Source of the DNA: an uncultured Gammaproteobacteria bacterium
GTDB lineage: Bacteria; Patescibacteriota; Microgenomatia; UBA1406; GWC2-37-13
DNA length: 64,000 bases
Reading direction: 5' to 3'
Assembly: GCA_964433155.1 (NCBI GenBank)
Contig: CAYSQE010000003.1
Span: forward strand, 12,061-76,060
Shown here: piece after piece, positions 44,892-61,254 of the stretch
Layout of the letters: the number at the start of each line of letters is the position of its first letter
Numbering within the stretch: position 1 is the stretch's first letter
The notes under the pieces: generated by a model
What the model saw: only the letters and a program-made list of their open reading frames with translations
Database searches by the model: none
What the model was told of the DNA's origin: nothing
Position numbers and translations under genes: made by a program

Positions 44892-44914
44892 TATCAGAGA
44901 AATTCTACCAGAGC

Positions 44915-45103: not shown

Positions 45104-45143
45104 ATACGTTATTCTAACGAAAGCTGTGATAAAATCAAGAGTA

Positions 45144-46331
45144 ATGTTGCATTCTCTATTCAAGAGATCTGGCATATATTTTTTAGGTCTAAGCTTAGGT
45201 AAAATTTTGAGCCTACTCGTCTTCATTTTATTTGCCCGTACTTTGTTGCCCGAAAGATTTGGAGACTTTGTGCTTTTTGTTACGCTTATTCAGATTGTAA
45301 CTTTCTTCTCAGATTTTGGTTTAAACCAATGGTATCAGAAACAAGCAGACTCACAGGACAGAACAACTTTATTTAGTAAAATGATCTCTGCAAGATTTGT
45401 CACTCTTATTGTCTCTCTTCTTATATCTTCGATCTTTCTCTTTTTTAGTTCTACTTTCCAATTTTTAACTTCAATCTTCTTTTTGTTAACACTCTTACCA
45501 GAAGCTTTCCTTTCTGTAATAGACGGATATTACTTAGAGAAAAAACAATCACTGAAAGTATCATTAAAGGTGACAAGCAGGATGATGATCCTTTTTTTTG
45601 CTTATATATTTTTTAGACACACATTCAACTTTGAAACTGCAGTAGAATGGTATTTCCTATCTTCAGTTATCACTCTCGTCTGGTTCTTTCCTTGGAAACA
45701 GTTAAAATATTTTCATCTACTGCCATCACTTCAATATATTAATATATTAAAGTCATCATCGTCCTATGCCTTTTTAGTTTTTTCTTCCTTCTTATATGCA
45801 AGAGGCGATTCATTGGTTATTCGTTATGTTTTAAATAGCTCTGCGCTGGGTTTATATGGGGCTGCTTATCGATATTTAGAATCTTTGAGTCTATTACCAA
45901 CTGCTATATCACACAATCTTTTTCCTCTGTCTGCAAAAAAAGAAGGAGTGAGCCTTGATCAGTTTAAAAAAATAGTACTAGTTTCAATTTTAACTGGTGT
46001 AATTTTTTCCTTAATTATTCTTATCTTTTCTGACGTATTGATTATAGAATTGTTAGGCGAATCTTATGAACAGGCAATACCAATACTCAAAATATTTTCT
46101 TTTGTATTGTTCCTGTTTTTTCTCAACGCGCCTTTTGCAACGGTGGTTCAAAGCTCAAAACTTATAAATAGATTTCTACCTTATGGATTTCTTAACACCT
46201 TAGCAAATATTGGCCTAAACCTAATTTTTATTCCAATATATGGTATTTCCGCAGCTGCATGGATAATGTTAATTACAGAACTCAGTGGACTTTTGATTAA
46301 TGTTTATTTTATAAAGAAGATATATTCTTAG
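45144..46331 (+). CDS. MOP/Wzx-type polysaccharide flippase-like membrane protein
   Basis: About 12 TM helices. ATG 45144 (MLHSLFKRSGIYFLGLSLGKIL) avoids overlap with the Cys-rich ORF; the ORF track starts at 45003. Confidence 0.55.
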   Translation: MLHSLFKRSGIYFLGLSLGKILSLLVFILFARTLLPERFGDFVLFVTLIQIVTFFSDFGLNQWYQKQADSQDRTTLFSKMISARFVTLIVSLLISSIFLFFSSTFQFLTSIFFLLTLLPEAFLSVIDGYYLEKKQSLKVSLKVTSRMMILFFAYIFFRHTFNFETAVEWYFLSSVITLVWFFPWKQLKYFHLLPSLQYINILKSSSSYAFLVFSSFLYARGDSLVIRYVLNSSALGLYGAAYRYLESLSLLPTAISHNLFPLSAKKEGVSLDQFKKIVLVSILTGVIFSLIILIFSDVLIIELLGESYEQAIPILKIFSFVLFLFFLNAPFATVVQSSKLINRFLPYGFLNTLANIGLNLIFIPIYGISAAAWIMLITELSGLLINVYFIKKIYS

Positions 46332-46391
46332 ACTTAATATGATTTCGACTTAAACTTCAATCGATTAAACGATTAAACACTTTCCAATTTT

Positions 46392-47939
46392 ATGGAAAAA
46401 AATGTTTCAATAATAATAATTCATTGGAATACGCCTGAACTTCTGCGAAAACAACTCATTTCATTAACTTCAAATATTAAGACAAGCGAGTTAATAGTGA
46501 TAGATAATGCCTCAAAAGAATCATTAGATTGGATTAATAAAGATTTTTCTCAAGTTCAACTTATTCAAAATAAATTAAATAGAGGCTATGCCTTTGCTTG
46601 TAATCAAGGAACGATACAAAGTAGAGGAGAGTGGCTTCTTTTTTTAAATCCCGATGTTGAGATTTCTAACCGTCAAATCAAGCAACTTGTTGAATACGCA
46701 AAAAAAAATAATTTAGACGCTTGTTCGCCAAAAACTACCCATTCATATCAAAAACCACTTCCGACGTGGTTTTCTCTACTTAGTGAATTTACGCCATTAG
46801 TCAAACTGGTACCGTTAAACTTATTCGCACAAAAAACGCTTTTTGGCGGATGTCTGCTAATAAAGGCTGAGGTTTTGAAAACTTTGGGAGGTTGGGATGA
46901 GCGTTTTTTTCTCTGGTTTGAGGATAGTGACCTTACGGTTAGATTGACAAAGAACGGATATAGAATTGGCTGGTTTTCTGCCCCTATTAAACATCTAGGA
47001 GGAACGTCTTTTAAAACCCTTGATAACCAACTACAACGAGATATTTTTTTTCAGTCTATGGATATCTTTGCTAGAAAACATTTCTCCTTATTTGGAAAAT
47101 TTATAGTTTCTTTGATTAAAAAGCGTTATTCAAAACGAAAACTTCTGCCAAAATTATCTAAGGAAACAAACATAACTATTCCAAACCTCAAATTAAACCT
47201 TCTTAAGTATTTTTTTGAAAAAAACAAAAATATTTTACACACCTCCGGAGTGTGTTGGACAGTCATAACAAGCTCTTTAAATAATATGACTATTTGGCAA
47301 TGGAGAAAAAGATACCCAGATATTAGATTTATTCCAATTGAAGAAAATAAAGGGTTTGCATCAACTGTAAATATCGGATTTAGAGTTTCAGCCGGAAACT
47401 GGCTCGGAACGGTAAACGACGATATTATTTTGTCAAGAAATTGGTTGACGAATTTATTATTCTGTAAAAAAGACGAAACGGGTTCAATAAATTCCACAAT
47501 ATATAAAGAAAGTGGAGATATCGAATCTGCAGGAATTACTGTCAGACCAAATGGTAAAGCCTATCCTCTCAAAAAATTAACTAGTGAGTCCTGTTTTGAG
47601 GTAGATGCCACAAACGCTGCTGCTGTAATCTATTCCCAAGAAGCAATAAATAAGGTCGGACTGTTTGATGAAAAATTCGGGTCTTATCTTGAAGATATTG
47701 ACTTATCTTTACGCTTAAAAAGAATGGGTTATAACAATCTTGTATCCTTGAAATCAACAGTCACTCATCTAGGCCAAGAAACATCTAAAGAGTTGGGTTG
47801 GAAAAAACAATACTATGATTTTAAAAACTGGATTTTGGTAATTTTGAAAAATTGGGGAATAAGACAATTAGTCCTAAACTTTCCAGCGATATTTATTGAA
47901 AGATTGAGAAATCTCTCAGGAGTTTTTAAATCGTTTTAA
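46392..47939 (+). CDS. Tandem double-domain family 2 glycosyltransferase
   Basis: Domain 1: VSIIIIHWNT...VIDNASKE...NRGYAFACNQG...FLNPDVEI...WFEDSDLTVRL. Domain 2: ENKGFASTVNIG...VNDDIIL...YLEDIDLSLRL. Confidence 0.75.
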   Translation: MEKNVSIIIIHWNTPELLRKQLISLTSNIKTSELIVIDNASKESLDWINKDFSQVQLIQNKLNRGYAFACNQGTIQSRGEWLLFLNPDVEISNRQIKQLVEYAKKNNLDACSPKTTHSYQKPLPTWFSLLSEFTPLVKLVPLNLFAQKTLFGGCLLIKAEVLKTLGGWDERFFLWFEDSDLTVRLTKNGYRIGWFSAPIKHLGGTSFKTLDNQLQRDIFFQSMDIFARKHFSLFGKFIVSLIKKRYSKRKLLPKLSKETNITIPNLKLNLLKYFFEKNKNILHTSGVCWTVITSSLNNMTIWQWRKRYPDIRFIPIEENKGFASTVNIGFRVSAGNWLGTVNDDIILSRNWLTNLLFCKKDETGSINSTIYKESGDIESAGITVRPNGKAYPLKKLTSESCFEVDATNAAAVIYSQEAINKVGLFDEKFGSYLEDIDLSLRLKRMGYNNLVSLKSTVTHLGQETSKELGWKKQYYDFKNWILVILKNWGIRQLVLNFPAIFIERLRNLSGVFKSF

Positions 47940-48893
47940 ATCTGCATCAACCATCATTTTTACTAGCACTTCAAAGCTTACTTTCGATTTCCAGCCAAGA
48001 ATTTTCTTAGCTTTGCTGGGTCTTGCTCTAAGAGCATGAACTTCTGCAGGTCTCTTAAATCTCGCATCACTTATTACGTATTTTTTCCAATTATCAATCT
48101 TAGCATATTTGAAAGCCAAATCAACAAACTCCTTCACATTATGATTTTCTCCTGTTCCAACAACAAAATCATCTGGTTTTTCCAGCTGAAGCATCAAATG
48201 CATCGCTTCAACATAATCACCGGCAAACCCCCAATCTCGCTTAGCCTCCAGATTACCAAGGTATAATTTGTCAGTTAAACCCATTTTTATTTTAGCCACA
48301 CCGTTGGTAATTTTGCGAGTGACAAACTGTATACCTCTTATGGGTGACTCATGATTAAAAAGTATACCGCTGCAGGTAAAAAGCCCATAGCTTTCTCTGT
48401 AGTTTACCGTCATCCAATGGGCATATACTTTTGAAATCCCGTATGGACTCCTGGGATGAAATGGCGTATTTTCGTCTTGAAAACCGTTGTCGTGTTGAAG
48501 ACCAAACATCTCTGAGGTTGATGCCTGGTAAAATTTAGCAGTCGGGCAAAATGACTTTATCGCATTCAAAAGATATAACACACCTATAGCGTTGATTTCT
48601 GAAGTAAGCTTTGCCATCTCCCATGAACTGCCAACAAACGATTGAGCTGCAAGATTGTATACCTCATCCGGTCTAACGTTTTTAATTACAGAGTATAACG
48701 AAGATTCGTCGGTCAGATCACCATCTACATATTCAATTTTATCAGTTAGATTTAGGAAATCTAAATTTTCAAAATTAGGATTCGAGTATCTCCTAGTCAT
48801 TCCATACACTTTATATCCTTTGGATAAAAGGAGTTTGGCTAAATAAGGCCCATCCTGCCCAAGTATCCCTGTGATTAAAGCCGTTTTTGCCAT
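47916..48893 (-). CDS. gmd: GDP-mannose 4,6-dehydratase
   Basis: ALITGILGQDGPYLAKLLLSKGYKVYGM, SPYGISKVYAHW and NHESPIRG. Confidence 0.9.
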   Translation of the reverse strand: MAKTALITGILGQDGPYLAKLLLSKGYKVYGMTRRYSNPNFENLDFLNLTDKIEYVDGDLTDESSLYSVIKNVRPDEVYNLAAQSFVGSSWEMAKLTSEINAIGVLYLLNAIKSFCPTAKFYQASTSEMFGLQHDNGFQDENTPFHPRSPYGISKVYAHWMTVNYRESYGLFTCSGILFNHESPIRGIQFVTRKITNGVAKIKMGLTDKLYLGNLEAKRDWGFAGDYVEAMHLMLQLEKPDDFVVGTGENHNVKEFVDLAFKYAKIDNWKKYVISDARFKRPAEVHALRARPSKAKKILGWKSKVSFEVLVKMMVDADLKRFKNS

Positions 48894-48956
48894 TTTTTAT
48901 ATTATACCTCAATGTTTTCTAAATGTTACGTGTTTCATGTTTTATGTTATATGCTT

Positions 48957-48965
48957 TGCTACAAT
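48957..48965 (+). promoter_or_regulatory. Extended -10 element (TGcTACAAT) 8 nt before ATG 48973
   Basis: Read directly. No room for a leader or SD, which suggests a leaderless transcript for the flippase gene. Confidence 0.35.
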
Positions 48966-48972
48966 ATTCCTT

Positions 48973-50271
48973 ATGATCCCCAGGTTGATTAATTTCGCAA
49001 AACGACCGACAAGTGTTAATGTCATTATCAATACCTTCGGAAACTACCTAAATGTATTTTTTACAGCTCTTTTCGCTCTCATTCTTGTCCGCATTTTGAC
49101 TCCTCCACAATATGGAGTTCTAAGCGTGCTTCTAGGTATCGCATATGTTCTAGCAAACATTCTCGACTTTGGCACAACAGCTACAATTTATTCTTATCTA
49201 CCAAATTTATATGAAAAAAAGACATACGAGCTTTATCGATTTATCAAAAGTACTTTCTATTATCAATCCATTTTTTCTTTTTTTGTTATCGCAGTTTTGT
49301 TAATATCTTTTCCCTTCTTAGATAAAGTTTTTTTCAAAACAGATGCTCCCTGGTCAGAGCTTGCTTTAACTTCGATCTCAGTTTTATTTTTAATCTGGCA
49401 AAATTTTCTGCAAAATATACTTTTTGCCGCAAAAAAATTTGTCAAGACAAATGTATATTTGAATATCGCCAACATCATTAAAACGCTTATTGTTTTTCTT
49501 ATGATTTATTTGAAAATTATCACAGTAGGATCGGTGATTTTTGTCTTTGGAATTTTAGGACCCGTCATATTTTTTTTCTTGCTTTTTTTAGAGAAGAAAG
49601 ATCTTGTCTCGATTTTTCTTAAGTCCGAAGTTAAACGAAGCGAATTTAGGTTTGGCTACACTTTGACATATTTCTTAGCTTCTCAATTTTTTAACCTGGG
49701 ACTTCGCATGGATCTTTTTCTTCTATCTTATTTCAGATCTAAAACCGAGGTAGGATATTATGGACTTTCACAAAAAATTATTTTAACGATTATTACTACC
49801 ATAGTTAGTATCACGCAAGTCTTATCGCCCTCATTTTCTAAGATAACCAGAAAATCAGAAGCGTTATCTCAACTTAAGACTGGATTCATGTATCTTTTAC
49901 TCCCTTCGGCACTCTTTTTTATTCTTTTTTTCACACCAAAGGAAGTCTATGATCTTTTTTTTACCGACAAATTTGTACAAACTGCACCTATAACACGGGC
50001 CCTAAGCTTACCTTTTGTGCTATATGCTCTCGGCAGCCTTCCTGTCTTATTTCTTTTATATACGGTCAAAAAACCCGTTTATATTTTAATCTCAAATGTT
50101 GTTTTCTTTATCATTTTAACCCTAGGATGTTATTTTTTAATTCCGAAGATGGGCGTCTTTGGCCCACCATACGCTATAGCTTTAGCCCTCATCGTTGCAA
50201 CAGGTATTCAAATAGTCGCCAGCATCAAGGAGTTTAAGAAAATGTTCTCACCCCGCTCCCAGACTTCATAA
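48973..50271 (+). CDS. MOP/Wzx-type polysaccharide flippase-like membrane protein
   Basis: About 12 TM helices. ATG 48973 is chosen because the ORF-track GTG 48871 would overlap the gmd start. Confidence 0.55.
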   Translation: MIPRLINFAKRPTSVNVIINTFGNYLNVFFTALFALILVRILTPPQYGVLSVLLGIAYVLANILDFGTTATIYSYLPNLYEKKTYELYRFIKSTFYYQSIFSFFVIAVLLISFPFLDKVFFKTDAPWSELALTSISVLFLIWQNFLQNILFAAKKFVKTNVYLNIANIIKTLIVFLMIYLKIITVGSVIFVFGILGPVIFFFLLFLEKKDLVSIFLKSEVKRSEFRFGYTLTYFLASQFFNLGLRMDLFLLSYFRSKTEVGYYGLSQKIILTIITTIVSITQVLSPSFSKITRKSEALSQLKTGFMYLLLPSALFFILFFTPKEVYDLFFTDKFVQTAPITRALSLPFVLYALGSLPVLFLLYTVKKPVYILISNVVFFIILTLGCYFLIPKMGVFGPPYAIALALIVATGIQIVASIKEFKKMFSPRSQTS

Positions 50272-51626
50272 TATATCCCCCTAAAATTTCTTGTTTTTTT
50301 CTTATTATAATTACTTTGTCGCAAAATCTTCGCATAGTCCAAACCATAAATTTCTGAGGTATAAGGAATAATAATTATTTCTCGATACTTTAATTTGGTT
50401 AAATCCAAAGCTCGTAAATCTCCAAGATTCAAATCGCTTCGATAATATTGAATTGGGTCAGAAGAGGAATAGATCATATAAATTTTCTTATCTGAAGGAA
50501 GGCTGTTTGCCAAGGACTTCCAATCCTCACGATGAAAGCCAGGAAATAAGAGATATAACAAAGAAAAACTGATAAAACCAAAAAATATGATTAATCGATA
50601 AATCGTATTTTTTTGTGCAAATGAAATCAAGACTGAAATAAGCGGAATAAGATAAATAAACCTAAAATATTGAAGTAGGGGAGTAAAAAAAGAAAATAAA
50701 ATGCCAAAACCCATTGAACCGATGATAAAAAATAAGATAGACCTCTGTTTCAATCCGCCTTTTAGGACAAAAAACCAGACGAATGCTGTCCAAATCCCAG
50801 CAACAGCCCAATACAGCAATTTGGGCTGAAAGCTGATTCGTCCAAAGGCAAATTTTAACGGGATGAGGAAAAGATTTTTTAGATTCGTAGTACCTAAAAC
50901 TTGTGTCCAATTTGGTACCAAGAGTAACTGTTGTTGAGCATTGACAAACTGCCGATAGACTAATGGCAGAAGAACTAATAACGAAGAAGAAAGCATTAAA
51001 AATGAAACAAAAAAAAATCTATATTGCTTTTTGTAAAGTAAATACAAAAACATAGGAATAATTAAAAAAATCGAGCCGTAAAATGTTAAAAAAGCCAACG
51101 AAATGAAGATGTTAAAAAATAAAATAGGTGAGGAGCCAAAATTTTTCGAGACTTTCTGTTTGAGGAGCGGAAGCGACGAGTTAAGTCGAGATAAAATTTC
51201 TGGCGACAAACCTAAATAATAATAGAGTGCGACAGTTAAAAAAAATGTAGCCATCATATACATTCTCGCCTCCTGTGAATAATAAATAATCAATGGATTA
51301 AAAAGAAAAAATGCCACAGCCCAAAAACTAAACTTTTCATTTTTTATTTTTTTACCAATCAGGTAGACAATCCAACCCGTAAGAAGTGAAAAAATAATTG
51401 ATGGAAATCGCAGGGCAATTTCAGAATAACCAAATAAATTTGTCCAAAATTTCATAGATAGATAATAGAGTGGGGGATGAAAATCATGAGGAGAGAATTT
51501 TGTGGCGACATCTAAAAAACTGTACTGTTGAACCACTCGTGCTGTGGTTGCCTCATCTAACCATAAAGATTGATTTAAAGATATAAGACGAATTAAAAAA
51601 GCGAAGACCAATAGAAGATATATCAT
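50208..51626 (-). CDS. GT-C fold glycosyltransferase (ArnT/PMT_2-like)
   Basis: First-loop motif SLWLDEATTA, then more than 10 TM helices. Start moved to ATG 51626 because the ORF-track N-terminus (to 51683) is the translated tRNA-Gly gene. Confidence 0.6.
   Translation of the reverse strand: MIYLLLVFAFLIRLISLNQSLWLDEATTARVVQQYSFLDVATKFSPHDFHPPLYYLSMKFWTNLFGYSEIALRFPSIIFSLLTGWIVYLIGKKIKNEKFSFWAVAFFLFNPLIIYYSQEARMYMMATFFLTVALYYYLGLSPEILSRLNSSLPLLKQKVSKNFGSSPILFFNIFISLAFLTFYGSIFLIIPMFLYLLYKKQYRFFFVSFLMLSSSLLVLLPLVYRQFVNAQQQLLLVPNWTQVLGTTNLKNLFLIPLKFAFGRISFQPKLLYWAVAGIWTAFVWFFVLKGGLKQRSILFFIIGSMGFGILFSFFTPLLQYFRFIYLIPLISVLISFAQKNTIYRLIIFFGFISFSLLYLLFPGFHREDWKSLANSLPSDKKIYMIYSSSDPIQYYRSDLNLGDLRALDLTKLKYREIIIIPYTSEIYGLDYAKILRQSNYNKKKTRNFRGIYYEVWERGENIFLNSLMLATI
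51135..51204. repeat. Second, shorter copy of the in-frame palindromic element (inside the GT-C gene)
   Basis: GCCAAAATTTTTCGAGACTTTCTGTTTGAGGAGCGGAAGCGAC aligns with lepA 11487-11536 (AAAATTTTTTCGAAAGTCAGTTGTTTGAGCAAAGGAGCGAGGAAGCGAC). The right end AAAATTTCTGGC is inverted relative to the left end. Confidence 0.6.
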
Positions 51627-51633
51627 AAATTTG

Positions 51634-51705
51634 AGCGGTGGAGGGGATTTGAACCCCTGACCTTCTCCTTGGAAGGGAGACATTCTACCGCTGAACTACC
51701 ACCGC
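51634..51705 (-). tRNA. tRNA-Gly (anticodon UCC)
   Basis: Reverse complement GCGGTGG-TA-GTTC-AGCGGTA-GAAT-G-TCTCC-CTTCCAA-GGAGA-AGGTC-AGGGG-TTCAAAT-CCCCT-CCACCGC-T folds as a cloverleaf. Anticodon loop is CT-TCC-AA. No encoded CCA. Confidence 0.9.
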
Positions 51706-51926
51706 AATCTCAAATATTCTGCCAATCTTTTTTTTAAATAACCCCTACCAAATCCTGTCTTAAGCTGCAATTCTCTTTTTCTTGCATCGGTTTTATTTAA
51801 ACAACCTTCAAAATATACAAGTTCAATTTTAGAATATTTACTTGTTGTAAATATTTCTTTCTTAAGATGTGTTTTCAATCTAACCCTTAAATCTTGACAA
51901 AAACCTACATAAAACTTTCTATTACC
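51696..51926 (-). pseudogene. GIY-YIG nuclease mini-gene remnant (N-terminally truncated)
   Basis: The open frame reads GNRKFYVGFCQDLRVRLKTHLKK...ELVYFEGCLNKTDARKRELQLKTGFGRGYLKK. This is the YVG-to-C-terminus part of small GIY-YIG proteins. The first beta-strand (GIY) and an ATG are missing. The 3' end overlaps tRNA-Gly by 10 nt. Confidence 0.5.
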
Positions 51927-51945
51927 TTATATATATTATATTTCA

Positions 51946-52821
51946 TTACCCTATAAAATCAATTATATGATTTGCTACCAAGTGTGGTTGGGTTATCACA
52001 ACATCATGACCTACTTTGGGAATTTCGATAAACTCTCCTTTTACCAAGAGATTAGCCAGCCTTTTTGAGTCTTTTGCAGAAACTGCGTGATCATTTTCAG
52101 CTGCTATCACAAGCGTTTCCTTTTTTAAGTTATGTGCTAGCTTATCAAACTCTGAGAGGCTAAGATGTAATACATTGTCAAAAATTGCCTTAGCATTAAA
52201 ATTACATGTATCAATTAAAATTGCTTGAACAAACTCCCTGTCTAGGCTAGCTATATCTGGATAGCGCTTTATATAGAAAAGCTTAAATAACCAGTTTGCG
52301 ATAAAATATCTGATTTTCTTAGGCTGGAATAGATAAATTAATCGTGGCCATTTTTTAAGCGCATAAAAAAGGTAGATTGCGCTCTTATACTGCTTTGCTG
52401 TTTTTTCAAGCTGTTCAACGCCATTAAATGGGGGAGAAAAAATTATCAGCTTATTTAGACTATTGGCATAATTTAGAGCATAATTAAGTCCGTGAACGCC
52501 TCCGGTCGAATGACCAAAAAAATTGACTTTTTTTGTCTGTAAAACCTGTTCCTTAAACTTTTGAATGAATTCTGAATAAAAATCAAAACTGTGAAAATGC
52601 TTAGAGTTTGTTTCTGAACTACCATAGCCCGGCAAATTTAAAGCGATACACCAAAACTTTAAACCCAATAATTTCATCAGCGGTAATAATGAGATTACCG
52701 ATATTGGCCAACCAGGAATCATCAACAAAGGACTTTTCCCATTGCGTTTTCCTGTCTCAATATAGGTTATTTTCTTACCTTTGAGTCTAACGTTTGCAAC
52801 TAGATACTGTCTCTTTCTCAT
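51946..52821 (-). CDS. Alpha/beta-fold hydrolase (esterase/lipase-like)
   Basis: Nucleophile elbow GHSTGG, an oxyanion region (LLMIPGWP) and a C-terminal GHDV His. ATG 52821 is preferred over the TTG at 52851. Confidence 0.7.
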   Translation of the reverse strand: MRKRQYLVANVRLKGKKITYIETGKRNGKSPLLMIPGWPISVISLLPLMKLLGLKFWCIALNLPGYGSSETNSKHFHSFDFYSEFIQKFKEQVLQTKKVNFFGHSTGGVHGLNYALNYANSLNKLIIFSPPFNGVEQLEKTAKQYKSAIYLFYALKKWPRLIYLFQPKKIRYFIANWLFKLFYIKRYPDIASLDREFVQAILIDTCNFNAKAIFDNVLHLSLSEFDKLAHNLKKETLVIAAENDHAVSAKDSKRLANLLVKGEFIEIPKVGHDVVITQPHLVANHIIDFIG

Positions 52822-52861
52822 AATTGTAATTTTAACTATGCTCCTATACAATGTACACGAT

Positions 52862-53185
52862 ATGAAGCAAAATTTAAAGATAGGAATCGACTTAGTCTAT
52901 ATTCCTGACTTTGAAGCAAAAATAAAAAAACGAGGAAAGCTATTTATTAAGAGAATTTTTAGCAGTAGAGAAATAAGTGAAACAAAAAAGATAGCATCTT
53001 TAGCCGGTAAATATGCTTGTAAGGAAGCATTTATAAAAACTCTGGGCAAAAAAATGTATCGATTGAATGAAATTGAAATATTAAAGCTGCAGGACAGACC
53101 CTACGTGCTTTTTAAAGGCAAGAAATTCTTTGGAGTTAGCATATCTCATGCTGGTTCGTATGCTGCGGCGGCCATTGCTATATGA
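52862..53185 (+). CDS. acpS: Holo-[acyl-carrier-protein] synthase (4'-phosphopantetheinyl transferase)
   Basis: IGIDLVYIPDF, FSSREI, AGKYACKEAFIKTLG and VSISHAGSYAAAAIAI. ATG 52862; the ORF track begins at 52781. Confidence 0.8.
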   Translation: MKQNLKIGIDLVYIPDFEAKIKKRGKLFIKRIFSSREISETKKIASLAGKYACKEAFIKTLGKKMYRLNEIEILKLQDRPYVLFKGKKFFGVSISHAGSYAAAAIAI

Positions 53186-53193
53186 TCTAATCT

Positions 53194-55755
53194 ATGAATC
53201 GCCCCAACTTCGAAAAATTAAAAGATCTGCGTGCGTTGATAAGTGCTAGCTTTACCAAACATAGCTCACGGATATTTTTTAAGACTAGGGGGAAATTTCG
53301 GAACAAAAAATTTTCTTACAGTGAAATATATTCATATATTAAATCTTCGGGAGTTTTTTTTCCAGATATTGGCGTATATAAAAATGATAAAGTAATGCTG
53401 ATTGGTCCAAATTCTCCAGAACTCGCCACCCTCATTTTATCCTGTTTTTATCACAATAGAGTTGTTGTACTTGCGGATGTCCGTTCATCCAAAGAACTGT
53501 TACAAAGATACATAAAACTGACAGACCCAAAAATCATATTTACCACCAGATTTAGAACCAGGGATATCTCAGAAATAACAAAAAAGTATCTTGTGATCGA
53601 AGATTTTTTTGATTATCTAAAAGAATATAATGGCAAATCAGATGAAAAGATCTCTAAACTCAAATCTGATGCTCTTGCAGAAATTATTTTCACCTCAGGT
53701 ACGACCGGCAAACCTAAAGGCGTGATGCTTACCCATAAAAATATCGTCTCAAACCTAGAATCGATCTCACATCTAATTCCAGACACGGACCAGTTTGAAG
53801 CTCTATCTCTTCTACCGCTGAGCCATATGTATGAACAAATTATCGGACTACTTGTCCCGCTCTCTGTTGGAGCAAGAGTGTGTTATGTTAAAAAAGTAAG
53901 TTCGGTAGCAATAAAAAAAGCGCTGGAAGATTGGAACATAACTCATCTTGCCATAGTCCCACAGGTCCTAAAAAATCTTTATAAAAATATTGAAAATGAA
54001 GCTGAAAAAGAAAATAAAAAAAATATTCTGGAATTTGTTAACTCAATTAATAAACATCTACCTTATGCTTTGCGAAAATTTATTTTCAGAAAAGTTCATA
54101 AAGAACTCGGTGGGAGAATTCAATTTATTATAACTGGAGGGGCTAAACTAGATTATGACGTTGGTCAAAAGTGGGAAAATATGGGTTTTCCAGTGATTGA
54201 AGGGTATGGCGCAACCGAGGTAACAGCCGGAGCAACCGGAAATAGGCTTGAGAACAGAAAGTTGGGTTCGGTTGGATACGCGCTTCCAAAGGTTGAGATA
54301 AAGATAGATAAAAATGATGAAGTTCTTATAAAGGGTAAAAATGTATCTCTCGGCTATTACCAAAATAAAGTGAAAACCAGAGCGGTTTTTACTAAAGACG
54401 GTTGGTATAGATCGGGTGACATGGGTAAGATGATCGACGGTAGACTGTACCTTTTAGGTAGGGACGATTTCAAGATTGTACTAAGTAGTGGTGAAAATGT
54501 CTATGTCGAAGATCTGGAGAGTCAACTAAATCAGGAAAAAGAAATCTGGGAGTCTTGCGTAATCAATCTAGAGGTAGATGGTCGAGAAAAAGTCCATGCG
54601 GTGATTATACCTGCTCAAGGGTTTTCCAGAAATGATGTGGAGAATGGGCTAAAGCGAGTTAATAATCGACTTGAACAACATCAGCAGATAGTCTCACATT
54701 CTTTCTGGACTGAAGAGGACTTCCCCAGAACGCACACTCTGAAAACAGATCGAAGATATATTAAAGCTAAAGTTGAAGCTGAATATACAGGAAAAAAAAT
54801 GTTTGAGAACAAAACAGAGATTAAAGAACAAGCTGATAGACTAATTTCAATGATTGCTGAAGTTTCAGGAACACTTGGTCAAAGCATTTCGGATAAAACT
54901 AATTTAGGTGCGGATCTAAATATGGACTCGATCGATAGAGTGGAGTTGATAGCCTTACTTGAAGATGAATTTAACGTAACAATAGATGATTATGCAATAA
55001 GCGCTCAAACCAATGTTAAAGATCTTAGGCAGCTAATCAATGCATCAACCATGGAGATACCGCGTGATAAAATTTTTCAGCTACAGTATTTCAAACCTCC
55101 TTTTTCGATCTTGAGAACTCTTTTCTTTAAATTTTTCTTGTTACCGCTGCACTCAGTGTTTGTAAAAACAGAGATCGAAGGAAAAGAAAATCTTCCAAAT
55201 CATTTGTCTCCTGTCATCTACGCTTTCAACCATATTGGCCCGCTTGACTTGCTGTCTTTTTTGCGCTATTTACCAACCAATCAGCTTCTTCAGACTGCCA
55301 GCGCTGGCCAGGAAAATCTTTGGAACAATAAGTCTAACTTTTTTGGCTTTCTTCTACAGTTTTTAGGCGGCGCCTTTCCTGTATCACCAGATCAAGCGGC
55401 CGGCGCTCGTTCTGGCCTGGAAAGGATCGGAAAACTTTTAGATAACAACATATCTATCACACTGGCCCCAGAAGGTAGGATGACAAGAACGGGTAAAATG
55501 CAGAAATTTAAACGCGGGATAGGTGTGATCGCTTCAGAAATGGACGCCCCAATCATCCCAATTAAATTGGAGGGCGACTACACAGATGTCTTTAGAGTCC
55601 CGCAAAAAGCCTCTGATCAGGTCCCAATCACATATTTCCTGCCAAAATTGACCCAAACTAATATCAAAGTAAAAATCGGTAAACCCTTGCATTTGACTGG
55701 AATCTCATATAATCTAGCAACAGAAATTGTTGAAGATGCGATACGAAAACTATGA
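53194..55755 (+). CDS. Tri-domain fusion: acyl-AMP ligase / phosphopantetheine carrier domain / PlsC-type acyltransferase
   Basis: Adenylation cores FTSGTTGKPKGVMLTH, EGYGATEV, YRSGDMG and GRDDFKIVLSSGENV. Carrier motif LGADLNMDSIDRVEL with Ser579 (nt 54928). Acyltransferase HX4D as FNHIGPLD with His680 (nt 55231), and APEGRMTRTG. Confidence 0.8.
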   Translation: MNRPNFEKLKDLRALISASFTKHSSRIFFKTRGKFRNKKFSYSEIYSYIKSSGVFFPDIGVYKNDKVMLIGPNSPELATLILSCFYHNRVVVLADVRSSKELLQRYIKLTDPKIIFTTRFRTRDISEITKKYLVIEDFFDYLKEYNGKSDEKISKLKSDALAEIIFTSGTTGKPKGVMLTHKNIVSNLESISHLIPDTDQFEALSLLPLSHMYEQIIGLLVPLSVGARVCYVKKVSSVAIKKALEDWNITHLAIVPQVLKNLYKNIENEAEKENKKNILEFVNSINKHLPYALRKFIFRKVHKELGGRIQFIITGGAKLDYDVGQKWENMGFPVIEGYGATEVTAGATGNRLENRKLGSVGYALPKVEIKIDKNDEVLIKGKNVSLGYYQNKVKTRAVFTKDGWYRSGDMGKMIDGRLYLLGRDDFKIVLSSGENVYVEDLESQLNQEKEIWESCVINLEVDGREKVHAVIIPAQGFSRNDVENGLKRVNNRLEQHQQIVSHSFWTEEDFPRTHTLKTDRRYIKAKVEAEYTGKKMFENKTEIKEQADRLISMIAEVSGTLGQSISDKTNLGADLNMDSIDRVELIALLEDEFNVTIDDYAISAQTNVKDLRQLINASTMEIPRDKIFQLQYFKPPFSILRTLFFKFFLLPLHSVFVKTEIEGKENLPNHLSPVIYAFNHIGPLDLLSFLRYLPTNQLLQTASAGQENLWNNKSNFFGFLLQFLGGAFPVSPDQAAGARSGLERIGKLLDNNISITLAPEGRMTRTGKMQKFKRGIGVIASEMDAPIIPIKLEGDYTDVFRVPQKASDQVPITYFLPKLTQTNIKVKIGKPLHLTGISYNLATEIVEDAIRKL

Positions 55756-56825
55756 ATAAAAATCTGCCGCTTAGCGGATTAAAGATAATCGACATGACGC
55801 AGTACCTGCCCGGACCTCTAGCCACTAAAATATTGAGCGATCTGGGGGCAGAAGTCATCAAAGTCGAGTTCGGAGAAGGTGATTTTTTGCGGATAATCCC
55901 TCCTTTTTCCCAAAAAATGAGTCTACTTTTTCAAACCCTCAATGCAGGGAAAAAAAGCCTTGGGCTAAATGTGCAAAAAAATGAAGGGTACGAAATATTG
56001 TCGAAACTTTTGCAACAATCAGACATCCTTATTCATTCCTTTCGAACTAGAAGAGCCGCGAAGTTGAAGATAACTTTCGACCAACTGAGAAAGATTCAAC
56101 CTCAGATCATCCTTTGTGAAATGCTTGCGGACTTTGAGATTGAGGCGGGACATGACCTAAACTTTCTTTCCTTATCTGGAATACTTTCCCTACGGTCCAA
56201 ACAAACTGGCGACCTGCCATACTTTCAGATAGGGGACCTGATGGGAGGAACACTCAGCGTAGTTTCTAGTTTACTTGCCACTATCATTATGCGAGAAAAA
56301 ACTAGAAGACCTCAACATTTGCAGATCTCAATGTTGGAAGGGACAAAATATTTTCTTAACTTTTATTTTAAGTCCGTCCAAAAAAATGGTATTGACACTC
56401 TTGATATCCTGAGAGGAAAGGCTCCTTGTTATAACATCTACAGGTGCAAGGATGGAAAAAAAATAGCCATGGCTGCTTTAGAGCCAATTTTTTGGGCAAA
56501 TATCTGTGAAGTCATCAAGCATAAAGACTTGCTAGACAAACAGTTTGACGAAAACTATATTCCTGAACTTAAAAATATATTTAGCCAAAAAAACCGGGGG
56601 GAGTGGCTGAAAATGTTTAATTCTTCAGATACAACTGTTAGTCCTTTATTAGATCGTGCCGAAGTCTCTGTCAATAAACAATTTCCAGCTAAATTCAACG
56701 ATCAAAGTTTTAATCTTGCAAAAAAAGCTCCTTTACTTGGCGAAGACACTAAAAATATTTTAGAAAATCTTGGCTACTCTAAAGTAGAAATCCTGCGTTT
56801 GCGTTCCGAAAGAATAGTTTTATAA
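55752..56825 (+). CDS. Family III CoA-transferase (CaiB/BaiF-like)
   Basis: LSGLKIIDMTQYLPGPLATKILSDLGAEVIKVE N-terminus. ATGA-coupled to the fusion gene. Confidence 0.8.
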   Translation: MNKNLPLSGLKIIDMTQYLPGPLATKILSDLGAEVIKVEFGEGDFLRIIPPFSQKMSLLFQTLNAGKKSLGLNVQKNEGYEILSKLLQQSDILIHSFRTRRAAKLKITFDQLRKIQPQIILCEMLADFEIEAGHDLNFLSLSGILSLRSKQTGDLPYFQIGDLMGGTLSVVSSLLATIIMREKTRRPQHLQISMLEGTKYFLNFYFKSVQKNGIDTLDILRGKAPCYNIYRCKDGKKIAMAALEPIFWANICEVIKHKDLLDKQFDENYIPELKNIFSQKNRGEWLKMFNSSDTTVSPLLDRAEVSVNKQFPAKFNDQSFNLAKKAPLLGEDTKNILENLGYSKVEILRLRSERIVL

Positions 56826-56837: not shown

Positions 56838-57866
56838 TCAAGCGTCTAAGAAAGATTTGGGAGTGAAAAAAGTCCTTCCATCGGCATCTATAAATCTAAA
56901 CAAAGCGCCTCTTATAACTTTTTGCGGCACTTCTTCTGGCCGCATCGTAGTGTTTCCACTTCGAGTGATGATATGTGTTACTGTCGACGAAAGTTTTTGG
57001 ATATCGCCTTCTCTCAACAAACTCATAATTTCTGGTAATGAATGATTTGAATTAAGCGCTCTCACAAGTAATTGGATGAAGGCAATTTCGAAATTGGGAC
57101 TACGGGAATCTGATCCTGTAGTAGAATCATGTATTTCTCCAATGGTCAATCCTTGCAGATTAGTAACAAATTCTGAATAAGCTCTTTCATAGCTATCGTC
57201 GCTCTGGAGTTCTAAATTGCTAATTTGTGACAGCAATCTTCGTGTAATGATTGTTAGTGCCCTTGGATAATATTCTTTCATTCCATCGAGCCCCCACATA
57301 ATTGATTGTTCATCTCCAAATATATTTCTTGCCGTTTCTTCATGTTTTTCTTCCACTCCAGGCATAACCGACACCATTAATCCCTCATAAAATATTCTCG
57401 TTGCAAATCCTCTTTGAGCTGCAGTAATTTGATTAAGATCAATTTTAACTCTAAAAAGTTGTTCCAATTGTTGAGCAAACATTCTTTTTTTTGCAAGTGT
57501 AAGATTAACCGGAACTTCTGCAGACTGTCTAGCTAAGGCATACCAGACAAGTTGCCTTCTTCTTTCATCAGGAAAGGTGAAAATTTCGTCTGAGATGGTC
57601 ATTGCTTGAGTTGTCGGTTCAACTACCCAATATTGATCGCTGACAGATTGTTTAACACCAGTGAGTTTAATGAACAGGGGGTGGGCAGGTGTTGATTGCC
57701 GAGAAACAGGACCAACATCAATGGTTGGAATCCAACTTTCGGCTTGATCTGCAAGCCGTGGGTCAAACAATTTCCAAAGAGGAACTGCGATCTTAATATC
57801 GTCTCTCAACATCCCTAATTGGTGTTCTTTTGCAGCGTTTGGATTGGGTGGAAGATCTAAAACCAT
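56838..57866 (-). CDS. Hypothetical soluble protein (342 aa), no recognisable domain
   Basis: Long uninterrupted ORF with no TM or signal sequence. Noticeably less Lys/Ile-rich and more Gln/Arg/Ala-rich than its neighbours. Confidence 0.5.
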   Translation of the reverse strand: MVLDLPPNPNAAKEHQLGMLRDDIKIAVPLWKLFDPRLADQAESWIPTIDVGPVSRQSTPAHPLFIKLTGVKQSVSDQYWVVEPTTQAMTISDEIFTFPDERRRQLVWYALARQSAEVPVNLTLAKKRMFAQQLEQLFRVKIDLNQITAAQRGFATRIFYEGLMVSVMPGVEEKHEETARNIFGDEQSIMWGLDGMKEYYPRALTIITRRLLSQISNLELQSDDSYERAYSEFVTNLQGLTIGEIHDSTTGSDSRSPNFEIAFIQLLVRALNSNHSLPEIMSLLREGDIQKLSSTVTHIITRSGNTTMRPEEVPQKVIRGALFRFIDADGRTFFTPKSFLDA

Positions 57867-57903: not shown

Positions 57904-58911
57904 TTATCTTTGCCACCCATTTGGATGATCTTTATACCAGGTGAGTAATGATTCTATACTATCCTTACTTGTTCTTGTAGGTTTCCAAGCCAAAACTTTA
58001 TTTGCTTTTTCGATCGAGGCAATCATTTTTGCGTATTCTCCTTGACGTGGAGTTGTTTTTTTTAAATTTACTTTTTTTCCAGTGACTTCTTCAACGATTT
58101 TTGCTACCTCAAGGACAGAACTCCCAGACCCAGTACCAATATTAATAACCTCACTATTTCCGCCGTTAAATAAATATTCAAGAGCCTTTAGGTGTGCACG
58201 ATTTAGATCAACAACATTGACATAATCTCTTATCGGGGTTTTATCTGGAGTATCAACTTGGGGACAGGTGAGATAAAATTTTTCAATCTCCAAAACTCCT
58301 CTAACCAAATTCTGAGTTAAAAGTGACGATGGCTTTTTTGAGTCACCGATCAACCCATCATCTGAAGCGCCGGTAACGTTAAAATAACGGAGGATACAGT
58401 ACTGTATCCTCTTTAATTTTCCAAACCATGCTATGATTTTTTCAGCCATTAATTTTGACTCTCCATAGGGATTGCTTGGTTTTGTGGGATGTTTTTCGTC
58501 AACTGGCACATGCTTTGCGTCTCCATAGACAGCGCAGGTAGAGGAAAAAACAATATTTTTAATACCAAACTCTGTCATCTTCTCAAGCAGATTAAGTGTT
58601 CCGATGATGTTATTTTTAAAATATTTTTCTGGCTTTTTCATCGATTCATCAACCAAGCAGGAAGCCGCAAAGTGGATTACGGCTTGAATATCTTTTTCGG
58701 TAGTAAACAACGAACCGAGATCATGTCGCAGATCCTTTTCATAAAAGCGAAGCTTTTCCTTGCCAAATTTTTTCTGGAGCAATTCAAGCGGCACTCTATA
58801 ACCTGTAGAATAATTATCAACCCCCACAACCTCATATCCCTTTTGCAGAAATAGATACGTTGCTACAGATCCTATATAACCTCCAGCGCCAGTTATCAAA
58901 ATCTTACGCAT
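57904..58911 (-). CDS. galE: UDP-glucose 4-epimerase
   Basis: ILITGAGGYIGS, STCAVYGD, YGESKLMAE and the typical GalE length. Confidence 0.85.
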   Translation of the reverse strand: MRKILITGAGGYIGSVATYLFLQKGYEVVGVDNYSTGYRVPLELLQKKFGKEKLRFYEKDLRHDLGSLFTTEKDIQAVIHFAASCLVDESMKKPEKYFKNNIIGTLNLLEKMTEFGIKNIVFSSTCAVYGDAKHVPVDEKHPTKPSNPYGESKLMAEKIIAWFGKLKRIQYCILRYFNVTGASDDGLIGDSKKPSSLLTQNLVRGVLEIEKFYLTCPQVDTPDKTPIRDYVNVVDLNRAHLKALEYLFNGGNSEVINIGTGSGSSVLEVAKIVEEVTGKKVNLKKTTPRQGEYAKMIASIEKANKVLAWKPTRTSKDSIESLLTWYKDHPNGWQR

Positions 58912-58968
58912 AATGCTATTTTAGCAAGTTTAAAGGTAAAAGGTTAGGATGCCCGTGTAGAATAAAGG

Positions 58969-59379
58969 TTATGAAGCTGGTCGTTTAAAATTATCCCAAG
59001 CTTTTGAAAGATTATACAACTGTCTGCCGGAAATGTCGTATGTTTTAATTAGATTATCAATTTGCTCTATATTAATGCTGTAAAGATCTTTACATTGCTC
59101 TAGGCTTACGATTGTTTCGTTACACTCTCCCATTGCGTCATCTAAGTATTTTTGAAATCCAGCTTTTTGATGACGTTTACCGTAGCCTTCAGCAATTAAT
59201 CTTGGAATTGACTTACATGATCTACTAAGTTGATCTTTCAAATCATACTTTTCACTTGCTGGAAGTAATGGAATAATTTTTTTCATCACAATTAACATTG
59301 CTTTATATGTATTTTGAAAAACGTTTAAATCTCTAAATGACGTAATTGGTTTTTTATTTATTTGATTATCCATACTCAT
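58969..59379 (-). CDS. Four-helix-bundle protein (23S rRNA intervening-sequence protein / Avd-like family)
   Basis: FRDLNVFQNTYKAMLIVMKKI...EKYDLKDQLSRSCKSIPRLIAEGYGKRHQKAGFQKYLDDAMGECNETIVSLEQC matches the family pattern. Confidence 0.7.
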   Translation of the reverse strand: MSMDNQINKKPITSFRDLNVFQNTYKAMLIVMKKIIPLLPASEKYDLKDQLSRSCKSIPRLIAEGYGKRHQKAGFQKYLDDAMGECNETIVSLEQCKDLYSINIEQIDNLIKTYDISGRQLYNLSKAWDNFKRPAS

Positions 59380-59409
59380 GTAAGTCCTAACCCCTAAACC
59401 AAACCGGCT

Positions 59410-60318
59410 TCATAACCATTTACCCCTTAACCTATGTAATGGATGCCAGTTAATCCTTCTCTCCGCCAAATATATCCCTCCAAAAACAAGCACTGAACCG
59501 AAGAAAAAATGAATCGTAGGATACTCACTAAGTAGAGGAGCTGCAATAAGTACCGCGACTACCGGATCGATATAGGTAAAAAGTCCAACCTCCTGCGTAT
59601 CAATCTTTGAAATACCATAATTAAACAAAAAATACGCCAAAGCAGAAGATAAAAATACCCCAAATAATATGCCGGTCCAACCTCTGATATCAAGGCTTGA
59701 AAAAGACCACGATTGTGTCTCAAACAAAAACATAGGAAAGAAACTTACGGCTCCTATTAAAAAACTGATAAAAGTTACCATGGCTGAACCTACCTTAGCG
59801 ATTACATTTTTTTGTAACAGTGGGTGAAGTACTGCTCCTAAGGTAGCCAGCAAAAAGAAAAGGTTTCCTTGCAATTCTCCTAAAGCCAAAGTCTCTCCAT
59901 CAAATATGACGGGGGATAGAATTATGAGTAAAACCCCAAGCAGTGCAATAAGCATTCCTATAAAAACCTTCGAATGGGCTTTTTCCTTTAAAAAAAGTAT
60001 GGACAAAAAATACAAGAAAACCGGGCCAGAAGAAGCAATTATTGGCGCGTTGATACTCTGAGATCTTTGTAAGCCCCAAAAGAAAAATGTGATATTGACG
60101 CTGATCCCAAAAAAAGCCCCCAAAATCAGTTCTAACCATTCTTTACGTGATAGTTTTACTTCCCATTTTTTAATTAAAGGAATAAATAGAGATGCAGCAA
60201 AGAAGAAACGAATAAAGGCTAGTGTGAATGGAGGAATGTTCTCAAGAGCAAACTTGAAAATAGGCGAGGCTGCACCCCAGATAATATTTGCTATGACGAG
60301 AGCCAAAATTGGATTCAT
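59410..60318 (-). CDS. EamA/DMT-superfamily transporter
   Basis: 10 TM helices in two halves. Stop/start overlaps the upstream GT2. Confidence 0.7.
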   Translation of the reverse strand: MNPILALVIANIIWGAASPIFKFALENIPPFTLAFIRFFFAASLFIPLIKKWEVKLSRKEWLELILGAFFGISVNITFFFWGLQRSQSINAPIIASSGPVFLYFLSILFLKEKAHSKVFIGMLIALLGVLLIILSPVIFDGETLALGELQGNLFFLLATLGAVLHPLLQKNVIAKVGSAMVTFISFLIGAVSFFPMFLFETQSWSFSSLDIRGWTGILFGVFLSSALAYFLFNYGISKIDTQEVGLFTYIDPVVAVLIAAPLLSEYPTIHFFFGSVLVFGGIYLAERRINWHPLHRLRGKWL

Positions 60319-61244
60319 TTTTTCTTTTTGTTTAAATAGACAATAAGCTCACCAATTATTCCTGTGGTGATAATCTGTATTCCTACAATAAGAAGAACTA
60401 CGCCTAATAAAAGAGCTGGCCTTCGATAAAGTAAAACTCCAAAAAATAATCTTTCAATTGTCAAATAAAGGCTTACTAAAAAACCTGCTACAAACAAAGC
60501 GCCCCCAACGATTCCAAAAAAATGAAGGGGTCTTTCGGAAAATTTATAAATAAAATAGGCAGTTAATGTGTCCAATAAACCAACAAAAACTTTTTCAATT
60601 CCATACTTTGATTTTCCGTGTAACCTCGGGTTGTTCTTTACCGGTATTTCTGTCACTCTATATCCATTGTAATACACCGCAAGTGGAAAGAAACGGAAAT
60701 TATTGCCATAAAAAGTAAAGTCAGACAAAACCTCTCTCCTAAAGGCTTTAAAACCACAATTTATATCGCTGAACGGAGAATGTAAAAAAATCTGCAAAAA
60801 ATATCGTGCTAATGTAGAGTAAATTTTTATTATGGTGTTATCTTTTCTACCGATTCTAATCCCGTTGACGAAATCATATCCAGCTTCAATTTTCTTCACG
60901 AATTTAGGCAAGTCTTCGGGATCATCCTGCAAATCTGCATCCATAAATATGATTACATCACCGTTTGCTTCCTGTAAACCGGAAAATAATGCCTGTCCCT
61001 TTCCTAATTTTTTTTTATGATGAATTATCTTAATTCTTGAATTTCTGAGGTCAAACATTGATATAGAACCATCCGTGGAACCATCATTTACAAGAATAAT
61101 TTCGTACTCTTGTTTTAGTTTATTGCACTGATGAACTAATTGACCTGCCTCGCCGGCAGGCGGGTTAATCAAAGCGGGTAAATTGTCTTTTTCGTTATAA
61201 AAAGGAATAATAATTGAAATCATATATTTGTACGGACAGAACAT
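60315..61244 (-). CDS. Polyprenol-phosphate glycosyltransferase (GT2, GtrB/ArnC/DPM1-like) with two C-terminal TM helices
   Basis: ISIIIPFYNE...YEIILVNDGSTDGS...FMDADLQDDPEDL, plus a hydrophobic C-terminus. Alternative start ATG 61223. Confidence 0.8.
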   Translation of the reverse strand: MFCPYKYMISIIIPFYNEKDNLPALINPPAGEAGQLVHQCNKLKQEYEIILVNDGSTDGSISMFDLRNSRIKIIHHKKKLGKGQALFSGLQEANGDVIIFMDADLQDDPEDLPKFVKKIEAGYDFVNGIRIGRKDNTIIKIYSTLARYFLQIFLHSPFSDINCGFKAFRREVLSDFTFYGNNFRFFPLAVYYNGYRVTEIPVKNNPRLHGKSKYGIEKVFVGLLDTLTAYFIYKFSERPLHFFGIVGGALFVAGFLVSLYLTIERLFFGVLLYRRPALLLGVVLLIVGIQIITTGIIGELIVYLNKKKK

Positions 61245-61254
61245 TGTTCTGTCG

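Follow-up and report, generated by a model that had tools for sequence, protein, structure and literature searches.

The window analysed here is a stretch of 64,000 nucleotides of contig CAYSQE010000003.1, and the subject of this report is a set of four genes within it: an alpha/beta hydrolase, a phosphopantetheinyl transferase (PPTase) of the AcpS type, an 853-residue protein that joins an adenylation domain, an acyl carrier domain and a PlsC/Aas-type acyltransferase (hereafter the fusion), and a protein of the family III CoA-transferase fold. An earlier note on this DNA had described these four open reading frames (ORFs), and all of them are present in the window (Table 1). The arrangement given there also held: the PPTase gene lies immediately upstream, ending 8 nt before the fusion starts, and the ATGA coupling of the downstream gene was verified in the sequence, where its start overlaps the fusion stop codon (AAACTATGAATAAA). 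The hydrolase and AcpS genes are divergent, with 40 nt between their likely start codons. The fusion is best read as a putative Aas-like enzyme for acyl activation and lysolipid acylation, with swapped domain order and a carrier in cis, which would be primed by its own AcpS.

Table 1. Genes and domains of the acyltransferase module (positions in the window)
Feature	Coordinates	Strand	Evidence
Alpha/beta hydrolase	longest ORF 51946-52851 (TTG 52851); likely 51946..52821 (ATG 52821)	-	Pfam
AcpS	longest ORF 52781-53185 (TTG 52781); likely 52862..53185 (ATG 52862)	+	Pfam, TIGR00556
Tri-domain fusion, 853 aa	53194..55755	+	Pfam
ANL adenylation domain, residues 1-530	53194..54783	+	Pfam, core motifs
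Built-in acyl carrier domain, residues ~548-614	54835..55035	+	PP-binding
PlsC/Aas-type (LPLAT) acyltransferase, residues ~630-853	55081..55752	+	PF01553
Family III CoA-transferase-fold protein, racemase-like, 357 aa	55752..56825	+	PF02515

Pfam divides the fusion into an AMP-binding domain (residues 26-389, E 6e-62), a PP-binding domain (residues 548-614, E 5.7e-9) and an Acyltransferase domain (PF01553, residues 659-791, E 5.5e-17). The adenylation motifs, Ser579, His680 and PEGR block claimed for it are all there, and in an alignment of 19 homologues with 28-52% identity to the window protein the motifs fall on invariant columns. In the adenylation domain the P-loop T167-S-G-x-x-G-x-P-K-G176, Y338-G-x-x-E342, D409, R423 and the A10 lysine K517 are invariant, and the window protein reads TSGTTGKPKG (167-176), GYGATE (337-342), SGD (407-409), GR (422-423) and Lys517 at these sites. 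The carrier has an invariant D578-S579 pair, in which Ser579 (codon 54928-54930, within LNMDSIDRVEL) is the phosphopantetheine attachment residue. In the transferase N679-H680-x4-D685 and P759-x-G761 are invariant, the latter as APEGR in the window protein, which also shows F728-P729, P759-E-G-R762 and P786-x-x-P789. A strongly hydrophobic helix (residues 637-656, FSILRTLFFKFFLLPLHSVF) precedes the acyltransferase core, at the position where PlsC has its membrane-embedded N-terminal helices, and it probably holds the acyltransferase domain at the membrane. The fusion is identical to the 'AMP-binding protein [Candidatus Roizmanbacteria bacterium]' of GCA_016198855.1; database names for its family are 'AMP-binding protein' or 'long-chain acyl-CoA synthetase'.

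Structure prediction and profile searches place the C-terminal domain among lipid acyltransferases. An AlphaFold model of the full-length fusion (predicted local distance difference test, pLDDT, 84.5; predicted template-modelling score, pTM, 0.82) was covered by solved structures over the adenylation part at most, and the C-terminal 357 residues were also modeled (pLDDT 74.8). The top Foldseek match of the acyltransferase is Thermotoga maritima PlsC (5KYM; E 1.3e-9, template-modelling (TM) score on target 0.59, 220 columns against a 241-residue target), followed by human GPAT1 and then PatA, and the family profile also found 5KYM in the PDB (5.8e-11). When the isolated transferase domain was ranked against NCBIfam, the Aas-type model PRK08633 (2.4e-18) came before generic AGPAT (7.5e-14) and E. 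coli PlsC (0.022), with weak matches to OlsF and GlsA; all of these scores are under the curated cut-offs, and TIGR00530 (AGP_acyltrn) reached 51.6 of the 102.95 bits needed. For the C-terminal domain, relatives from Aas, PlsC and GPAT thus rank first. The carrier domain shares 31% identity with E. coli AcpP (E 1e-9) and superposes on many acyl carrier proteins (ACPs) of fatty-acid synthesis (FAS) at TM scores on target of ~0.8; by sequence and model it is predicted to be an FAS-type ACP. The adenylation fold matches many ANL enzymes (TM score on target ~0.8), and the nearest solved relatives of this domain are malonyl- (MatB), oxalyl- and succinylbenzoyl-CoA (MenE) synthetases, alongside fatty-acyl ligases. 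Reading the acid substrate from these nearest structures proved uninformative, by sequence and by fold. The fatty-acid specificity and the acyl acceptor of the fusion are given below as what we infer.

The AcpS protein has 107 aa from ATG 52862, which is probably its true start rather than TTG 52781, and the NCBI contig (L001) carries the same gene call. It matches PF01648 (E 1.8e-10, 41.3 bits against a cut-off of 25) and passes TIGR00556 (68.3 against 45.35 bits); the equivalog TIGR00516 is not reached (38.5 against 59.8 bits), as for a divergent member. The protein is thus predicted to be a group I 4'-phosphopantetheinyl transferase. To follow its linkage to the fusion, 80 metagenomic loci were selected by a family-specific A10 motif, 'DFPRTxTLK', which came from a C-terminal alignment scan of metagenomes, and their ORFs were scanned with hidden Markov models built from the neighbours. 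A full-length-alignment scan of genome contigs was swamped by generic AMP-binding motifs, with about 8 of 80 loci being true three-domain relatives and none of them close. Among loci that extend 1.5 kb or more upstream of the fusion, AcpS adjoins the fusion in 21 of 27 with low GC content (<0.46), against 2 of 29 with high GC content (Fisher p = 5e-8). The high-GC loci cluster with those of Tepidiforma and further Chloroflexota, and in them the fusion gene stands by itself, whereas the low-GC loci are like those of the Candidate Phyla Radiation (CPR) and Margulisiibacteriota and fall in clades with their own accessory genes. These counts support a linkage of AcpS that is specific to low-GC, CPR-like lineages. 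The pattern fits small-genome lineages keeping AcpS for the fusion alone, and lineages with type II FAS (FAS II) using their housekeeping PPTase.

The fusion family itself is broad. Out of 8,000 scored candidates, 2,887 pass E 1e-10. When clustered at 50% identity, the family has at least 150 representatives with full-length alignments, and the best 150 nearly all align end to end at ~820-850 aa. The named members belong to Microgenomates, Woesebacteria, Margulisiibacteriota, Ktedonobacteria (on an 8.9 Mb chromosome), Anaerolineales and Tepidiforma, and remoter full-length ones to Acidobacteriota, Bacteroidales, a Gammaproteobacterium and a Methanosarcinales metagenome-assembled genome (MAG). 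The window fusion shares 35-39% identity with Chloroflexota and Margulisiibacteriota forms, against 25-28% with Acidobacteriota homologues. The tri-domain layout is neither rare nor CPR-specific, since the family is abundant in Chloroflexota and present in Acidobacteriota, Bacteroidales and others. The archaeal case is a contig of GC 0.54 from an 'uncultured Methanosarcinales archaeon' MAG, which encodes AcpS and a full three-domain fusion of 812 aa (L008:910-3812); to find an ester-lipid acyltransferase of bacterial type in an archaeal bin points to mis-binning or horizontal transfer.

Close relatives of the window genes are found in other loci, and there the gene set travels together. In L170 (fusion 67% identical, racemase-like protein 64%) two hydrolase genes on the minus strand precede AcpS, the fusion and the CoA_transf_3 gene, after which the contig ends. 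The P0265 contig (52% and 57%) has one minus-strand hydrolase followed by the same three genes, flanked by RNase J and FtsK, and L169 (57% and 58%) has these three genes between TsaD and a GNAT. In the Woesebacteria locus L006 (fusion 35%) the order is hydrolase, hydrolase, AcpS, CoA_transf_3 and fusion, flanked by PBP and flavodoxin genes. The gene set therefore recurs in four other Roizmanbacteria/Woesebacteria-like lineages with unrelated flanks, which makes it a real conserved module. Among the low-GC loci, hydrolase and CoA_transf_3 are the accessories of the Roizmanbacteria/Woesebacteria type, and a further type consists of AcpS and the fusion only, as in L003 (fusion 57%), where they are flanked by SecA and NUDIX genes.

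The gene coupled to the fusion had been called a family III CoA-transferase. The fold stands (PF02515, E 3e-64, 217.9 bits against a cut-off of 23.3), but the protein is closest to alpha-methylacyl-CoA racemases. Its top solved relatives are the M. tuberculosis alpha-methylacyl-CoA racemase (MCR; 8e-30, residues 6-306 of 357) and then a 'fatty-acid-CoA racemase', whereas with bona fide CoA-transferases, of 400-430 aa, the alignment mostly stops after the first ~200 residues. The catalytic residues of MCR are His126, Asp156 and Glu241 (PMC10967716), with which H134, D162 and E244 of the window protein align, and the equivalents are conserved in the Roizmanbacteria-clade copies. In the Woesebacteria copy (L006:7091-8008, 305 aa) the catalytic His is gone (AMRD against AGHD) and the Asp and Glu equivalents are kept, so this copy may have changed its function or lost its activity. 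In sequence, length and active-site residues the supposed transferase looks more like a racemase: it shares with MCR the PF02515 fold, the length (357 against 360 aa), a full-length alignment and the three catalytic equivalents. It differs from MCR by low identity and by a context of AcpS and a carrier-containing acyltransferase that is unlike beta-oxidation, and it may act on thioesters of a carrier protein rather than of CoA. All NCBIfam equivalog cut-offs were missed. There are four close relatives only (56-64%), after which identity drops to 37% or less, and all close orthologues that could be placed on contigs adjoin a fusion gene; the tie is confined to this narrow clade, and the gene is absent from most contexts of the fusion family. 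Some wider relatives (P0333, P0348 and P0375, ~32-33% identity) are fused to an SCP2 lipid-binding domain (PF02036), which hints at lipidic acyl-thioester substrates in the subfamily.

The hydrolase has 291 aa from ATG 52821 with a cap insertion of ~70 aa, lacks a transmembrane segment and is cytoplasmic. Its Pfam matches (Abhydrolase_1 3.8e-20, Hydrolase_4 1e-14) and its triad (Ser in GHSTGG, Asp in ENDHA, His in VGHD) bear out the divergent alpha/beta-fold enzyme described before, and the triad is retained in every linked copy, the L170 and L006 counterparts included. The likeness to esterases and lipases, which had also been claimed, is weak: the solved relatives are mixed and comprise a polyhydroxybutyrate depolymerase (1.7e-7), the monoacylglycerol lipase ABHD6 (6.9e-6), 6i8w (1.8e-5) and C-C hydrolases. 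A role as a type II thioesterase was considered and set aside, with no match to PF00975 and a sub-threshold one to Palm_thioest (E 0.0087). In a homologue search a single relative besides the window protein passed 1e-10, and the hydrolase appears to evolve fast.

A sister clade carries other accessories. Loci of the Microgenomates/Margulisiibacteriota type encode AcpS, a transporter of the major facilitator superfamily (MFS), usually a membrane-anchored alpha/beta hydrolase, and then the fusion. Such clusters were seen at L004:6336-10487, L007:6329-10478 and L089:1037-6059, and also in L090, L093, L094, L096 and L155. The hydrolase of this clade has ~290 aa, an N-terminal transmembrane helix and a GFSLGG elbow. 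The transporter (~435 aa), whose gene lies between those of AcpS and the fusion, is a member of the GPH/MFS_2 family; it was also compared with LplT and gave E 0.22, so that an LplT assignment was dropped. The four solved structures closest to it are all of MFSD2A, a lysophosphatidylcholine symporter (2.3e-20 to 1.3e-16), with MelB behind them at 2.8e-14. MFS_2 transporters range from bacteria to mammals (PMC8329300), and MFSD2A moves lysolipids by a flippase-like mechanism (PMC10013850). Compared with MFSD2A, a eukaryotic Na+-dependent symporter, the sister-clade gene is bacterial and is known here from its sequence. We regard its product as a candidate bacterial lysolipid importer, and its likeness to MFSD2A is the strongest independent pointer to lysolipids as the acceptor of the family. 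The transporter and the surface-anchored hydrolase together fit lipid salvage.

We also searched for a conventional route of lipid synthesis, with E. coli PlsX, FabH, FabD, FabG, AcpP, FabF, PlsC, LplT and Aas as queries against the 64 kb window and ~0.85 Mb of locus flanks. In the window the queries matched the fusion itself only, and in 374 kb of low-GC flanks they had no matches; two FabG-like matches were found in the high-GC flanks. The absence of FAS II, PlsX, PlsC and free ACP from the window and the 374 kb of low-GC flanks argues weakly for salvage. CPR bacteria have been reported as enriched in lysolipids and devoid of enzymes that use ACP; Probst et al. did not find ACP-dependent enzymes in the CPR genomes studied (PMC7242380). 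A literature search combining CPR or Patescibacteria with acyl-ACP synthetase, AcpS, LPLAT or acyl-CoA synthetase returned nothing relevant, and we found no paper tying the fusion, a dedicated AcpS, an MFSD2A-like transporter or a racemase-like partner to lipid acquisition in CPR.

With moderate confidence we propose that the four genes form one module that uses ATP to build a free acid into glycerolipid and needs neither free ACP nor acyl-CoA; the likeliest acid is a long-chain fatty acid obtained by scavenging. AcpS would move 4'-phosphopantetheine from CoA to Ser579 of the fusion, as its domains and motifs suggest; the lineages concerned probably lack a housekeeping ACP system, and the module would bring its own AcpS. 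The N-terminal ANL domain would then adenylate the acid, presumably a fatty acid, and load it as a thioester onto its own carrier, from which the PlsC/Aas-type domain, through His680 and Asp685, would pass the acyl group on to a free hydroxyl, that of a lyso-glycerolipid or possibly of lysophosphatidic acid or glycerol 3-phosphate. The net effect would be that of an Aas with swapped domain order and an intramolecular ACP step. The divergent cytoplasmic hydrolase probably supplies the free fatty acid or the lyso-acceptor by ester hydrolysis, and the racemase-like protein may act on an acyl-thioester, either epimerising 2-substituted chains or shuttling acyl groups between CoA and the carrier. 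In the sister lineages the MFSD2A-like transporter and the surface-anchored hydrolase take the place of the racemase-like gene.

More tentatively, and as a possibility that we would not rate as probable, the AcpS-primed fusion could be the main route from scavenged fatty acids and lysolipids to membrane diacyl-glycerolipids in CPR bacteria without FAS II and free ACP. This proposal jointly includes lineage-specific front ends: in Microgenomates and Margulisiibacteriota an MFSD2A-like importer would work with a surface lipase, and in Roizmanbacteria and Woesebacteria a cytoplasmic hydrolase with a carrier-acting racemase-like enzyme. If true, it would explain the origin of CPR membranes and reveal a prokaryotic counterpart of MFSD2A-type lysolipid transport. 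The source of CPR/Patescibacteria membrane lipids is an open question that the module makes experimentally testable, and two understudied items deserve attention with it: bacterial MFSD2A-like transporters beside a lipid acyltransferase, and a family III enzyme of racemase-like type that is linked with a carrier protein.

Around the module the window is a large envelope-glycan region. Pfam-confirmed genes at 44013-51683 and 57904-62802 encode GT2 enzymes, a PMT_2 glycosyltransferase, a GDP-mannose 4,6-dehydratase, an epimerase, DUF2079, two flippases of the Polysacc_synt family and two EamA transporters; the glycan character of 14.6-44 kb was judged solely from reading translations (~14600-51700 by eye). 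PMT_2 and Polysacc_synt genes lie immediately upstream of the module, and the epimerase, GT2, DUF2079 and EamA genes downstream. As the flanks differ in every orthologous locus, the idea that these glycan genes belong to the module was weakened. Several other ORFs were noted here. Between the PMT_2 gene and the hydrolase lies a 60-aa ORF (51696-51878, minus strand; also called in the NCBI contig, L001:10-192) with a sub-threshold match to the C-terminal part of a GIY-YIG nuclease domain (E 1.1e-3), and it may be a nuclease remnant. A 342-aa ORF at 56838-57866 (minus strand) is convergent with the module and is not beside it in the sister loci; it has no match in Pfam, NCBIfam or PHROGs. Further downstream are genes for a 23S rRNA-intervening-sequence protein (58969-59379, minus strand; PF05635, 1e-20) and a tyrosine recombinase/integrase (62881-63834, minus strand; PF00589, 1e-45).

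Several observations weigh against the proposed incorporation of scavenged fatty acids into glycerolipid. The adenylation domain resembles generic ANL ligases as much as fatty-acyl ligases, in sequence and in fold, and every NCBIfam equivalog cut-off was missed widely, Aas and AGPAT included. The window module has no transporter, and the racemase-like gene does not fit clearly into the scheme, its Woesebacteria copy having lost the His. The fusion family is common in Chloroflexota, which are expected to be FAS-competent, so that the fusion is not a specific adaptation to the loss of FAS. Finally, in ElbD, a Myxococcus xanthus enzyme with the same core, acyltransferase activity was not detected in vitro (PMC9131029).

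Part of this evidence could be accommodated by other substrates. The fusion might acylate a non-phospholipid envelope acceptor (a glycolipid, lipoglycan anchor, polysaccharide or aminolipid) for cell-surface biosynthesis, as do the PlsC-superfamily enzymes PatA, OlsA and GlsA on their envelope acceptors. The window copy is indeed embedded in a glycan-biosynthesis region, GT2, ABC-2 and Wzy genes lie nearby in L004 and L006 too, PatA is among the structural matches next to the weak NCBIfam matches to OlsF and GlsA, and glycosides are the classical cargo of GPH transporters. However, these flanks are not conserved, giving way elsewhere to RNase J/FtsK, TsaD/GNAT and SecA/NUDIX; PlsC, GPAT1 and Aas match well ahead of PatA, and the transporter is nearer to MFSD2A than to MelB, so we consider an envelope acceptor unlikely. 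The acid rather than the acceptor is at issue if the substrate is a short, dicarboxylic or 2-branched acid, which the ligase, the carrier and the family III protein would turn into an unusual acyl-thioester for transfer to a small or lipid acceptor; for this reading one could cite MatB, oxalyl-CoA synthetase and MenE as nearest solved relatives and a partner from the superfamily of formyl-CoA:oxalate transferase and 2-methylacyl-CoA racemase. Yet that likeness is generic for ANL enzymes (~23% identity), with the M. tuberculosis fatty acyl-CoA synthetase and the Thermus long-chain fatty acyl-CoA synthetase scoring nearly equally. PlsC-type transferases usually take long acyl donors, most family contexts lack the racemase-like gene, and SCP2 lipid-binding fusions occur among its wider relatives; on balance such an acid seems decidedly improbable.

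Least probable to us, to the point of strong doubt, is that the fusion is an ElbD-type enzyme of alkyl-ether lipid synthesis that works with a reductase in trans, as in split elbD variants. The core of synthetase, carrier and acyltransferase is shared, variants that are split or lack the fatty acyl reductase (FAR) are documented, and one of the distant Acidobacteriota relatives has an adjacent HAD (ElbB-like) gene. Against this, neither the ORF nor the conserved neighbours in CPR-type loci contain a reductase; the NAD-dependent epimerase encoded at 57904-58911, which matches NAD_binding_4 (2e-11), is not kept in the sister loci; and the Acidobacteriota proteins are more distant from the window fusion than those of Chloroflexota and Margulisiibacteriota (25-28% against 35-39% identity).

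Relative to Thermotoga maritima PlsC and the LPLAT (lysophospholipid acyltransferase) fold, the fusion has the HX4D and PEG blocks, its nearest fold match and a hydrophobic N-terminal helix before the core; it differs in an acyl donor that would be tethered in cis, and E. coli PlsC itself is barely matched (E 0.022). E. coli Aas has an N-terminal transferase and a C-terminal synthetase but no carrier domain, uses free holo-ACP in trans and has LplT as its partner (PMC11416262). The claim that Aas has the opposite domain order and relies on free ACP was confirmed by this source and by BLASTP, which aligned the adenylation half of the fusion with the Aas synthetase half (24% identity, 412 columns, E 3e-22) and its transferase with the N-terminal Aas-T domain (Aas residues 30-139, E 3e-9). 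Both proteins join an ANL acyl-activating domain and a PlsC-type HX4D acyltransferase in one polypeptide. In the fusion, however, the order is reversed, AcpS is encoded alongside and a carrier domain is inserted, so that no free ACP would be needed; the Aas equivalog models are missed by far (PRK08633 180 against 1221 bits, PRK06814 139 against 1349, PRK08043 28 against 886). As in lplT-aas, an MFS transporter accompanies the enzyme in the sister clusters, but it is a GPH/MFSD2A-like one, and the window contains no LplT homologue.

ElbD is a multifunctional ether-lipid enzyme with a core of acyl-CoA synthetase (ACS), ACP and AGPAT, and in vitro work on it has confirmed the activities of the ACS and the ACP (PMC9131029). 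The fusion has this ACS-ACP-AGPAT core in identical order, but it has no fused or adjacent reductase and no elbB or elbE, its partners being AcpS, the hydrolase and the racemase-like gene. A FAR-type reductase was found neither in the 853-aa ORF nor among the conserved neighbours in L001, L169, L170, the P0265 contig and L006, and membership of the fusion in ElbD was rejected on this ground. In a Terriglobia genome, an HAD-family hydrolase gene (L012:10677-11393, minus strand) lies convergently after a distant three-domain homologue and recalls the elbD-elbB pairing. Split elbD variants are documented in the literature, and the layout of adenylation, carrier and acyltransferase domains had already been described from other phyla under the label 'ElbD-like homologues lacking FAR1' (PMC9131029). 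The core architecture is already catalogued, and the AcpS-linked module is a variant of the Aas/ElbD-like kind.

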